From positions 33,024,550-33,088,549 of the forward strand of contig JASCQW010000122.1 in assembly GCA_030264375.1 (NCBI GenBank): 64,000 bases of DNA, written 5' to 3'. The DNA comes from Carcharhinus longimanus. Lineage: Eukaryota. A program made the position numbers and the translations under genes. Below the pieces are notes generated by a model that saw nothing but the letters and a program-made list of their open reading frames with translations, ran no database searches and was not told the DNA's origin. Of the stretch, positions 8,321-47,548 are shown piece by piece; position 1 is the stretch's first letter; every line of letters begins with the position of its first letter.

Positions 8321-8395
8321 TCTGACAAAGAGTCATCCAGACTAAAAAGGTTAGCTCAGTTCTCTTTCCACAGATGCTGTGAGTCCTGCTAAGAT
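8321..8395 (+). mobile_element. Short Penelope-like terminal fragment with decayed hammerhead motif (copy A)
   Basis: TCTGACAAAGAGTCATCCAGACTAAAAAGGTTAGCTC..TCCACAGATGCTG, homologous to the other five copies. Confidence 0.7.
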
Positions 8396-15644: not shown

Positions 15645-15900
15645 GAAAAAATGAGAAACTGCTGGAAATATTCAGCAGGTTTGGTAGCATCTGTGGAGAG
15701 AAATGGAATTAAGTCTTCAGGATGATGATCTTTCATCAGAACAGGAAAAGTTTAGAGATGTAACAGGTTTTAAGCAAGTATATATGCAAGGTGTATCTTG
15801 GTGGAAACCAAGAGGACGACAGAAAGAAAGGTCTGCTATAGTATGGAAGGAAGGAGAAATTAAAATGACAAAAAGGCTAATGGTGCAAGCAAGAGTGGGG
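15645..15900 (-). mobile_element. Longer Penelope-like 3' fragment with hammerhead-like motif (copy B)
   Basis: Minus strand: pyrimidine-rich UTR, then GTTCTGATGAAAGATCATCATCCTGAAGACTTAATTC..TCTCCACAGATGCT..CCTGCTGAATATTTCCAGCA. Confidence 0.65.
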
Positions 15901-28680: not shown

Positions 28681-28811
28681 GCTCTGGCGAAAGGTCATCT
28701 AGACTCAAAACGTTGACTCCATTCTCTCTCACAGATGCTGTCAAACCTGCTGAGTTTCTCCAACATTTTCTGTATTTATTTCAGATTCCAGCATTTGCAA
28801 TATTTTACCTT
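28681..28811 (+). mobile_element. Short Penelope-like element with decayed hammerhead motif (copy C)
   Basis: GCTCTGGCGAAAGGTCATCTAGACTCAAAACGTTGACTC..CACAGATGCTGTCAAACCTGCTGAG..CAGATTCCAGCA. Confidence 0.8.
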
Positions 28812-31565: not shown

Positions 31566-33202
31566 TAGTTGCCACCGTATCGTATCTATATCCAGTTAGC
31601 GATTGCTATTGGACAAGGCTGAGTTAGACTGCAAACCCGAGAAATCACCATGTGGTCCCAGCTGCACCTTTTTTCTCTGTACGCAGCCCCAGGTTCAATA
31701 GTCCCTCCAGCTTCAAACCTGACCTCGCTCCCCTCTCATCTTCAAATCCATGCTACTAATTCAAAAAGATCCAACTTTTATTTTCCAGATCAATTCTATT
31801 CTGGACACATTCCATTTGATATGTGACCCACGGCTATGTTTCTCCCTTCCTGGGGATTTCGTCAGCCTCAACTTTGAGCCTCTCAAGATTCCTGCCTCAG
31901 CATTGTTCCCCACTGTATCCATGTCCCTGTTGCAATCCTTGACTCTATCATTCACTCTTATGAAAAATTACGAACTCAGATATTTACTGACAACTTATAC
32001 AGCCAAGAGCTAAGCAGGTAATTTAAAAACATGCACAGAGTTTGTAAAGTACAACTAAAATACATGGAAAAAGCAGCAGAAAGAATAATTACATTGAACT
32101 GAAAAATAAACGGAGGCCAAATATATAAACTATTTTCCAAATAAAATAATACGGAAAATAATCAACATTATTAGGGAATAAAACTGCAGGTTTTTTTTAG
32201 TTATTCTGTTTAATATGTTCAATTTTTAAATAATTTTATACGACACAAGGGAGATTAATTACCAATGAAAAATAACTACTAAAAAAGTGCATGTGGCACA
32301 TGAGCAGTCACTATAGAATGTGGAAAATATTCCACAAGGTGACTGGACTACATTACTCACAGTAATGATGATTTAATTATTGAGGAATATTTAATTCTTG
32401 GTCATTTACAAATTCCATTCATAGTATGAAAATCATCATTGTTTTGTACCACTCACTTTCACAGAAATGTAGCCAAATGCATGAAGGAATTAGATATGCT
32501 GTTGCTATAGTACATTACTGTGCTCCTAGAAGTCCTTAACATATGTGCACCATTTGTTCGGGTGCATTGTTTAGACCTAAGCAACGCCCACTGTTGTTCA
32601 GTGGATGTTGTTCAATGGGTACATGAACAATTTTCACCATAAATTCATTTCCTCTACATAAAGTATTTTTTGAGGAGAGAATTATTGACTCTTCAGTGCA
32701 ATATAACAAAGAGACCGTTGAGAGAACTAATGTCCAGTTCAATAAAAAAATGTGTGCTACGGTAGACATCAAACATGCAAAATAGTAAAAAGTGTCAAGT
32801 AGTTGGATGAGCAATTCTTTCCTATGAACTTAGCCCTTCCTGCACTGCACCTTGTTTTCCCATTAATTGTGTGAGTGGTTGGCTTGCTCCCAAACCTCTG
32901 CCTGTGATGTTTTGTAAGATGCTAAAAGATGGCCAAGGGCAGCCTTGCAATGCTGCCTGTCTGATTGTTCATTGCTCTCTGTATGGAAATGGTTCTACGC
33001 TGCTTTGAACACCCGATTCACATCCTGGTTGAGGTCAGGAAATCACCATATTGATTAGACAGAATCTTTTTTGATCCAGATGGTAGAACCATGCCCAAAA
33101 TACTTGGTTCTTAATGAACTTTTCTACACAACAAACACTCTCTGATACTACTGTATTTTGCATCAGAATTAAAGTGCAAAAAAAAGTTCCAAAATGTTAA
33201 AT

Positions 33203-33303
33203 AAAAACAGGAAGTGCTGGGAAAAACTCAGCAGGTCTGGCAGCATCTGTGGAGAGAGAAACTGAGTTAATGTTTTGAGTTCAATATGACTCTTCTTTAG
33301 AAC
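33203..33303 (-). mobile_element. Short Penelope-like element with hammerhead-like motif (copy D)
   Basis: Minus strand GTTCTAAAGAAGAGTCATATTGAACTCAAAACATTAACTC..; 11-bp TSD AAATGTTAAAT at 33192-33202 and 33304-33314. Confidence 0.85.
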
Positions 33304-39015: not shown

Positions 39016-39216
39016 ACATGAACGAACAACTGGATTATTTTCATAACTTCAATTTATCAATTTGTGGTTGACAATAAATGCACTAGTACATTTAAGATGA
39101 TATTTTACATTTTCTACAATCCCACCAACTTAAATGCAGGGATTTCACAAAACCCTTTATACGCAGAAAATATTCATGTTATTTCTGGAAGCCACTGACA
39201 CGTGGGAGAAATGTTA

Positions 39217-39343
39217 AAAGCAAAATACTGTGGATGCTGGAAACATAAACAGAAAATGCTGGAAGATCTCAGCAGGTCTGACAGCATCTGTGGGGAGAGA
39301 ATAGACCCAACGTTTCGAGTCGAGATGACCCTTTGTCAGAAGT
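39217..39343 (-). mobile_element. Short Penelope-like element with hammerhead motif (copy E)
   Basis: Minus strand TTCTGACAAAGGGTCATCTCGACTCGAAACGTTGGGTCT; 10-bp TSD AGAAATGTTA at 39207-39216 and 39344-39353. Confidence 0.88.
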
Positions 39344-45922: not shown

Positions 45923-46627
45923 AGTGACTGTTAACAATATGGATTCCCTATTGAATGGAGGTCACTGAGAAGAATAAGCAAGTCCAGTGTGCATTCTCAG
46001 TGAATATGTGACTGCTGTAGTTTTGTAAGACACTTGGCCCCTCAAAGGCTTTCAATTCAGCATGTCATGATTTTATGGCATATTTACATATTCAAAAGAG
46101 GATTCATTCAAATAGTTTATACAAAATCTTTCAATGTGTTAACAACGCTATTCTTCATCATTCCATTTGACGAGTCCAGCATTGCAGATATTCTCTTCTT
46201 CAAAAATAAAAACGTGGTAATGTAGGAGTTGAAATAGGCATAAACCTTCATCAAAACATAGATACAGGAGATGAAAGTTTCCAGTTCTGCCGGCAGCAGG
46301 AAGCCTGGTGAGCAGGAGAGCTCAATTTGGGGTGAGCCATTGAGATGCCATCCGACTCCTGTCGACACTTCTGTGCTGGGCTCCTTTGGCTCTAACATCT
46401 GCTGCAACCTTTATAGTCAAACGTGAGGGTCTGCTGTTGCCATCCTGGGAAATAGCAGCTCCTGTCCTTCCTGGATGGGCTGGGGGAAGAGTCTCCACGG
46501 AATCTTTGCTGAATCATGGGGGCCACTCATTGTTGATTTCTCTCGGACATTCCTCCCCCAGTGCCAAAGGACTGCCACAATGAAGCTCCTCCCCTACAGT
46601 GAATGGAAGGCTGGCCTTTAAATATAG

Positions 46628-46795
46628 TAAAGGCAAAATACTGTGGATGCTGGAATCTGAAACAGAAACAGAAAATGCTGGAGAAACTCAGCAGGTCTGA
46701 AAGCATCTGTGGAGAGAGAATAGAGTCAACATTTGGAGTCTGGATGACCCTTCATCAGAGCTCTGATGAACAGTCATCCAGACTCGAAACGTTGT
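46628..46795 (-). mobile_element. Short Penelope-like element with inverted (head-to-head) hammerhead pair (copy F)
   Basis: 12-bp TSD CTTTAAATATAG at 46616-27 and 46796-807; palindrome centred at 46760/46761. Confidence 0.9.
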
Positions 46796-46799
46796 CTTT
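46757..46799 (+). ncRNA. Putative minimal type I hammerhead ribozyme motif
   Basis: AGAGCT-CTGATGA-A-CAGTC ATCCA GACTC-GAAAC-GTT-GTCTTT: intact catalytic core, 4-bp stem II, palindromic ACGT stem III, imperfect stem I. Confidence 0.65.
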
Positions 46800-47548
46800 A
46801 AATATAGCACTCAGACTTCTGACCCCATGAGGTAAGAGCAGAGTACCAACTTCCTGCCCACTGCCCCTGCCATGTGCTCCACGTGGATTCATGTTTAATG
46901 AACTGACCAGATCGCGGATGGTCAACAGTTGCCCCTACCCCGCCAAAAAAAAAAGAATCACTCCCACTGCCATGCCCACCACCAAACCTAGACTTCAGAG
47001 TAGATGATTCCACATCTGATAGCTCACACAGGATATGTTACTCAGAACTTTACAAACGTCTGTGGAATATTTTGAAAGACTTACTGCAAAAAACTGAGGT
47101 AGAAGAAGTAAAGGAGCTGTGCTACTAATAAATTAAAAAGAATCCCTTGCATGCCATGAGACAGAAACCAAATGGTTTTGAAGGTTTCTTTTAAGTCTGC
47201 TATTAGGTAATATAATTCCTTTGACATAAACCTTCAAACAAGACTCTCCAGAGCCTGGGATTTCAACAAAAGGATCCCTGGGATCTGGAAAACTACAGAT
47301 TTTTTTTATTTTTATATATTTGTTGACTTAATACCTTATGTATTTTGCAAATGTAACACTGCGTTCCTTTGGTTACCTGATAATATGTATTGGATGTTAA
47401 AACTAAGGTCAACAAATGTGGTAATTTTATAAGCTGATTCCTATTTGTAATAATTGAAAAGTTTCATCTCAAACAAGTTGCTAAGAGGCAAGTTTAACAA
47501 CATAATGATCATGTGATTCATTCTCCTTTCCCATCATTCTCCAAACTA

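Follow-up and report, generated by a model that had tools for sequence, protein, structure and literature searches.

Two mirror-image end modules of a probable Penelope-like element within one target-site duplication in Carcharhinus longimanus

The insert and its hammerhead motifs

The locus described here lies in a 64-kb stretch of the Carcharhinus longimanus genome, which was analysed as a whole and is referred to as the window. It holds an old and likely dead insertion of 168 bases, in which the short end piece of what is very probably a Penelope-like element (PLE) is present twice, as mirror images. The insert is bounded by the 12-bp sequence CTTTAAATATAG, at 46616-46627 and 46796-46807 (plus strand), which is found only at these two places when both strands of the window are searched and which is read as a target-site duplication; in the family, such duplications measure 8-16 bp. 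Between the two, element nucleotides (nt) 1-135 on the minus strand (long arm, 46628-46762) adjoin nt 1-37 in plus-strand orientation (short arm, 46759-46795), head to head. The long arm comprises a hammerhead motif, about 65 nt of downstream sequence and a tail, and it matches its best counterparts in the genome with 85-94% identity along its full length. The tail (approximately nt 101-135; 46628-46662, minus strand, with an approximate inner border) is present only in this arm; the 3′ ends of the family cluster at nt ~135 and ~100. The short arm ends two bases beyond the predicted hammerhead cut site, and the first five bases of the right duplication match nt 38-42 at four of five positions, a possible priming microhomology. 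The insert itself contains no ORF. In the window no frame is longer than 212 aa from stop to stop, and the 11 frames of at least 130 aa are all more than 2.5 kb away from the insert.

The arms have in common the tetranucleotide AGCT (46759-46762, assigned to neither strand), which corresponds to nt 1-4 and to the 5′ strand of helix I, and which is the putative 5′ end of the element RNA; the axis falls between 46760 and 46761. Since longer copies of the family read TTGYYYTY-AGCTCTGA, with pyrimidines and not AG before AGCT, self-complementarity is confined to AGCT, and the outer AG of the junction comes from the opposite arm. AGAG is therefore not a motif of the element. The inverted repeats that the sequence-only reading had placed at 46721-46760 and 46761-46800 were recomputed and do match at 34 of 40 positions (mismatches at 46771, 46772, 46786, 46790, 46795, and 46798), and its perfect 12-bp duplication is equally real. 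As for the 40-bp hairpin that it proposed, the fold holds (-69.8 kcal/mol, z -6.6) but the arm length does not: at its end the right arm takes in five bases of the right duplication, so that the true short arm has 35 bases, matching at 30 of them. These five differences in 35 fit the age of two arms decaying separately. The complete 192-base stretch, duplications included, has a folding energy of -69.8 kcal/mol for one strand and -65.7 kcal/mol for the other, in each case below 200 of 200 shuffled sequences.

Hand reading places a minimal hammerhead motif in each arm. On the plus strand (46763-46793), CTGATGA (46763-46769), GAAAC (46786-46790), and GTT (46791-46793) lie where they had been reported, and the core letters C3-A9, G12-A14, and U16.1-H17 are complete. 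The core had been called intact, which is correct for its letters but not for its pairing: the conserved G10.1-C11.1 pair is replaced by C-C (C at 46771), helix I contains a C-U mismatch (at 46795), and the motif is buried in the hairpin, from which forcing the hammerhead helices costs 33.6 kcal/mol according to the folding. The minus-strand motif (46728-46758) is decayed, with G12 changed to C at 46735, C15.2 changed to T at 46731 and a C-A in helix I. Neither hammerhead is predicted to cleave, and from these models a hammerhead function at the locus appears unlikely. An Rfam search at E up to 10 returned no hammerhead and only sub-threshold hairpin matches of microRNA type; a microRNA precursor was rejected as well, given a best score of 25.5 bits against a gathering score of 58 and the generic nature of these hairpin matches. 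The family motif has a 4-bp helix I, an extra A, a 5-bp helix II and a palindromic ACGU. It resembles the minimal type I hammerheads of metazoan PLEs, which have a 4-bp helix I, an extra base between A9 and G10.1 and a palindromic ACGU in place of helix III, dimers being predicted as necessary (PMC4209133). The same report mentions hammerhead pairs on opposite strands 100-700 bp apart; unlike the hammerheads described there, helix II is here of 5 bp, and the focal motifs abut without a spacer and are both damaged.

Other datasets speak to the reality of the junction. Eight runs were checked, of which six from separate studies cover the site (X18, X5, X19, X20, X9, and X15) while X7 and X8 lack coverage of the flanks. 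The contig of the unique left flank continues into the long arm in all six covering runs, and the listed contig of the unique right flank bears the short arm in five of them; the flanks differ by up to ~6% between runs. In four runs, the commonest loose ends on the left-hand side fall at 46628 and 46666. The best listed contig (X18) bridges the axis by 25 letters, and none does so by 31 letters on both sides. As far as the contigs show, the palindrome is not an assembly artefact. No empty site was found among the six covering datasets, all of which have it filled; the insertion predates the splits between them.

The family and its parent element

The long arm belongs to a large repeat family. 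Five further copies lie in the window (8321-8393, 15654-15740, 28681-28811, 33193-33301, and 39215-39340); none is inverted and all start at nt 2-4, and by eye the copy at 39215-39340 has a 10-bp duplication and that at 33193-33301 one of about 8 bp. In 100 evenly spaced 10-kb stretches (~862 kb excluding N), 38 sites were counted, that is ~44 per Mb, which extrapolates to a genome total of the order of 10^5 with all related subfamilies included. Upstream-extended copies (279 matches) have up to ~900 bases in common, and this stretch translates to a GIY-YIG-like end (L276, L288, and L292; PF01541, E 0.051). At one locus, L313, a 433-aa frame carries RVT_1 (E 1.5e-4) followed by GIY-YIG (E 0.0078), both below curated cut-offs, and a related hammerhead-plus-tail module stands ~580 bases downstream of it. 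Other long open frames were discarded as parent ORFs, being mostly runs of N; reverse transcriptase (RT) plus endonuclease was found in L313 only.

Because of the GIY-YIG-like translation upstream and of the L313 frame with its related module, the insert is, with high confidence as judged from sequence, the end module, twice, of an endonuclease-bearing PLE; the Penelope-like origin put forward earlier gains support from these same frames. The features of such elements were found as follows: a single ORF with RT and then GIY-YIG in the parent L313 (with E values under the curated cut-offs), a pLTR hammerhead by hand reading of the minimal motif, an optional tail of 30-40 bp, usually at one end (here between the ends at nt ~100 and ~135), and an adjoining inverted 5′-truncated copy inside one target-site duplication. 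The order RT then GIY-YIG rules out only the clades with an N-terminal endonuclease.

The likeness to the inverted pseudo-LTR junctions of Penelope elements, also noticed in the sequence-only reading, agrees with published cases (PMC3846280; PMC8557442). Adineta vaga Pen2a and Pen3a have pLTRs in inverted orientation, palindromes at the junction, a tail on one side only, duplications of 8-10 bp, and a TATA plus Inr-like motif (PMC3846280), and an inverted 5′ copy is called frequent in PLEs (PMC8557442). The shark insert shares with these and with the Drosophila virilis Penelope units a head-to-head 5′ copy, a junction palindrome, a tail on one arm, and one enclosing duplication (PMC3846280; PMC8557442; PMC2377424). 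Unlike them, it has no ORF between its arms and consists of 168 bases of end module only; the duplications of the family span 8-16 bp versus 8-10 bp in the inverted-pLTR cases cited, and its copy number permits junction statistics beyond those given for the A. vaga and D. virilis units in the accessible parts of these reports. The Poseidon element PAc of Anolis carolinensis is similar in having RT followed by a C-terminal GIY-YIG, an AT-rich target, and a minimal hammerhead followed after ~100 nt by two 3′ termini that delimit a tail (PMC11167929). The family is likened to it by domain order; head-to-head products and a strand-specific start are not described in the accessible part of that report. 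Non-LTR retrozymes are likewise short, non-coding, hammerhead-bearing, and PLE-derived, but they are head-to-tail tandems, whereas the insert is a single head-to-head unit with unequal arms and was not classed among them (bioRxiv 10.64898/2026.07.22.740005). In the literature covered, nothing was found on inverted or palindromic hammerhead units of Penelope type in sharks or elasmobranchs, a weak absence since most subscription papers and Repbase fell outside the coverage, nor, with partial coverage, anything from 2020 onwards on head-to-head, both-strand reverse transcription of PLEs.

Several arrangements around related modules were observed in passing. L298 carries modules at 1220 (minus) and 1962 (plus), on opposite strands and ~740 bases apart, flanking an ORF fragment; both have longer upstream sequence, so that they form a long version of the inverted layout, and a similar pair is found at C72:104322382 and 104322734. 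At L131, L148, and L236 the module is joined to one common other repeat ending ...GACTTCTTA, which suggests preferred insertion into, or by, that repeat. Apparent tandem copies with 100 N between them (L146/L147, L151/L152, and L006) are probably assembly overlaps at gaps.

Junctions, ends, and source letters across the family

A first search favoured inverted copies and was replaced by a mid-element pattern that ignores the junction, from which 90 of 770 matches were taken; seven had a gap on the 5′ side and were excluded. A head-to-head second arm is present in 39 of the 83 copies scored and absent from 44. The inverted pair is thus nothing unusual but common in this genome, and the layout has already been published (PMC3846280; PMC8557442). 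None of these 39 inverted copies has the exact AG|CT axis, although in three of them both arms reach nt 0-4 with a few bases between; nor does any exact-axis junction occur in 190 junction-blind loci. The sequence-only reading had centred the pair on AGAG|CTCT and proposed a genome-wide count of copies inverted there. Among 1,657 cores from AGCT onward, TCAG stands directly before in 112 (the focal site included, and some sites counted on both strands), which is ~17 times the chance rate of 1 in 256. The exact axis thus exists as a genuine class, though a small one, and is not a fixed feature of the family; its count may be lowered by short-read gaps and by palindrome instability. A separate palindrome pattern search gave 32 sites, and the snap-back-type junction TCAG-AG-CTGA occurs at L140 and L218.

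The ends of the arms were analysed in 69 gap-free sites out of 77 distinct exact-axis sites. Long arms (38-136 nt) end at nt 121-140 in 51 of the 69, and short arms (8-110 nt) end at nt 93-108 in 35, at or below nt 20 in 18, and never beyond nt 120. Non-inverted copies use the same two ends, nt ~100 and ~135. The hammerhead cut site at nt 35 was considered as the origin of the short arms and rejected: no peak of ends is seen there among the 69 sites (four at nt 31-42 versus five at nt 43-60), and the copies of the family start ahead of the motif, not at the cut. In 149 head-to-head pairs, a set enriched for the exact axis, the tail is found on one arm in 119, on neither in 28, and on both in two, where ~25 would be expected if the arms were independent; none of the 39 junction-blind and none of the 69 exact-axis pairs has it on both (expected 6.2 and 9.1). 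In 12 of 31 one-tail pairs, sampled with a pattern that favours such cases, the tail-less arm extends at least eight bases further 5′ than the tail arm, so that each arm has sequence absent from the other. A duplication accompanies seven of these 12 non-nested pairs, and at L159 the arm without a tail includes 15 bases of upstream sequence that are missing from the tail arm.

A single integration event, which had been proposed for the focal insert, is supported at the level of the family. Target duplications of 8-16 bp flank 24 of the 69 gap-free exact-axis sites but none of 69 shifted controls. In the 149 pairs, the two arms tend to carry the minor letters together at nt 77 (p 1e-7), 80 (3e-5), 50 (5e-5), and 21 (0.001); no co-occurrence is seen at nt 15, 37, and 68 or in the CpG columns 9, 28, and 32. 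Altogether, non-majority letters are shared in 77 of 8,313 columns, compared with 0.41% in shuffles, a level that none of 1,000 shuffles reaches. The sharing is weaker in the 50-pair exact-axis set (23 versus 14.7 expected; reached in 21 of 1,000 shuffles), in which the arms diverge by 17.7% within sites and 17.8% between sites. Since source letters are shared while CpG columns are discordant, both arms stem from one source and decayed independently afterwards. Gene conversion between arms was looked for in the 50-pair set and left no sign, and in the 149 pairs the CpG columns are discordant. Many exact-axis palindromes read TG in one arm and CA in the other at nt 9-10, two decay outcomes of one ancestral CpG, and this difference offers a handy internal clock.

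How the head-to-head pairs may form

The reading preferred here is that the two hammerhead end modules were placed head to head between the 12-bp duplications in one event, in which both nicked strands primed on the same RNA and the products were joined at their AGCT ends; a probability of roughly 0.6 is given to it. Taken apart from the identity of the element, the two-ended priming mechanism is held to be slightly better than an even bet, and the order of its steps is one that we infer from the anatomy and the family statistics. The endonuclease would cut the target strands 12 bases apart, and both nicked strands would prime reverse transcription on the same element RNA. The left end would prime at the outer RT start, nt ~135, yielding the tail; the other end would usually prime at the inner RT start, nt ~100, and here the right end would have done so with the four-of-five microhomology at nt 38-42. 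Both cDNAs would stop near nt 1, where the RNA likely begins, 30 bases after a TATA box, and the stubs would be run-off products of the module copy at the 5′ end of the RNA and not random truncations. In a minority of cases the cDNA ends would anneal at AGCT and be filled in; otherwise they would be trimmed and joined. The hammerheads would be carried along as passengers. Twin priming of L1 is comparable, since there priming from the second target end occurs at an internal RNA site and produces an inversion inside one duplication; its two pieces come from different parts of the RNA, whereas here the same part appears twice.

The insertion mechanism of PLEs has been called undefined (PMC8557442). 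In the anole, the Poseidon protein makes nicks in both strands and extends them, and its two internal start sites mark the limits of the tail; the protein is predicted to be dimeric and does not require hammerhead cleavage; its start site in vitro is alike on both strands, from which one-sided tails are not predicted (PMC11167929). A more specific version of two-ended priming is put forward tentatively, at somewhat less than even odds: the product would be strong-stop-like, with an RNA that starts at the first base of helix I, a TATA box at -30, and a protein dimer that primes two cDNAs from two nicks at two internal starts, followed by run-off and joining at AGCT. If true, it would explain head-to-head pLTRs, junction palindromes, and the one-sided tail together, without an antisense template. 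Against the preferred reading stands the focal copy itself, whose short arm covers only positions that the long arm covers too and stops at nt 37 instead of the usual ~100; for this reason it cannot separate two-ended priming from a fold-back of the cDNA. The variety of the junctions also counts against this reading, none of the 39 junction-blind pairs being exact, as do the snap-back-type junction at L140 and L218 and the equal divergence within and between sites in the 50-pair set. Inverted arms of at most 20 bases, seen at 18 of the 69 exact-axis sites (L241, L244, L246, L253, L320, L322, L327, L335, L336, L339, L346, and others), do not extend far enough to have been primed at either start site and fall outside the explanation by this reading.

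The step that concerns the start of the RNA relies on the 5′ border. The 44 non-inverted copies start at nt -4 to 6 in 20 cases and at nt 7-38 in 13, and the other 11 reach -8 or beyond. Among 52 cores with pyrimidine-rich upstream sequence, an exact YATAAA stands at -30 in 27, at -31 in two, and elsewhere within -120 to -6 in four; copies with the TATA box stem from few masters, so that the 27 are not 27 independent cases. The 24-base spacer that follows differs by eye in sequence between subfamilies and is constant in length. Since RNA polymerase II usually has its TATA box at -30, the putative start is placed at the A of AGCT. Position 1 holds this A in 1,657 of 2,179 cores, G in 216, and C or T in 306; position 0 holds G in 396 and A in 147. 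Thirty copies with G were examined for a G derived from the cap: 17 were inverted or mirrored, and among the 13 plain copies a duplication was recognised in three, in no case with a lone G. In junction-blind inverted pairs only 26 of 78 arms reach nt -5 to 6. Upstream extensions at L272, L275, L278, L280, and L287 go only to about -33, just taking in TATAAA; this is a second stopping point, for which the start-site model does not account.

It is conceivable, though on balance unlikely, that the AG|CT border reflects RNA processing or structure and not a transcription start, namely a 3′ splice site, a poly(A)-type cut after TATAAA, or stalling of RT at helix I; this would affect the RNA-start step only. 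Acceptor-like sequence is present upstream (CTGAT, a pyrimidine tract, and YAG), many arms stop within the hammerhead (nt 7-38), and for D. virilis an intron that terminates at the 5′ side of helix I (PMC4209133) and a promoter lacking a TATA box (PMC2377424) are described. A processed border is, however, at odds with the 58 plain copies, which have no common, exon-like sequence upstream, with the retention of A1 recorded above, and with the TATAAA spacing, constant also in spacer types without CTGAT (L305, L313, and L020).

A fair but less probable alternative to two-ended priming as a whole is fold-back or self-priming, in which the 3′ end of a cDNA begun at the tail end folds back and is copied, the resulting second arm ends at the tail border by cutting or stopping, and later deletions at the centre vary the junctions. 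A version of self-priming on an antisense template has been proposed (PMC3846280), and the tail has been ascribed to resolution by the endonuclease (PMC8557442). Fold-back accounts for the shared source letters and for nested cases such as the focal one; longer copies with C at position 0 read TCAG-CT-CTGA, a short natural inverted repeat, and the junctions at L140 and L218 are of the type expected from it. However, a zero-loop AG|CT junction would on geometric grounds be unattainable by simple snap-back of a strand ending in AGCT, the second arm ends where non-inverted tail-less copies end, and the 12 non-nested pairs and the arms at L159 also count against it, even though lopsided deletions at palindrome centres could have produced them later.

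That the insert is a self-contained palindromic element, MITE-like or retrozyme-like, which spreads as a unit with a functional hammerhead pair, is largely refuted and very improbable: at least 112 exact-axis matches and a stable hairpin are in its favour, but short arms and duplications vary between sites, CpG decay is independent between arms, both motifs are damaged, and the hairpin would have to open at the cost given above. A MITE in the strict sense was rejected because fixed length, matching terminal repeats, and a fixed short duplication were not found (arms of 8-110 versus 38-136 nt). Two independent insertions at one spot, or an assembly artefact, have hardly any probability left, since, common as neighbours are at ~44 copies per Mb and hard as palindromes are for short-read assemblies, a single duplication encloses both arms, tails are nearly exclusive, source letters are shared, and both junctions appear in other datasets.

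Taken singly, the locus is minor, being one decayed copy with a published layout among ~10^5 relatives. The family, in turn, is a record of the insertion process of Penelope-like elements. New here are the source-diagnostic letters common to both arms, the near-exclusive tails (two double among 149 pairs), and TATAAA exactly 30 bases ahead of AGCT; the one-sided tails, the shared source letters, and the TATA box at -30 give three concrete predictions for the in vitro system of the anole (PMC11167929).
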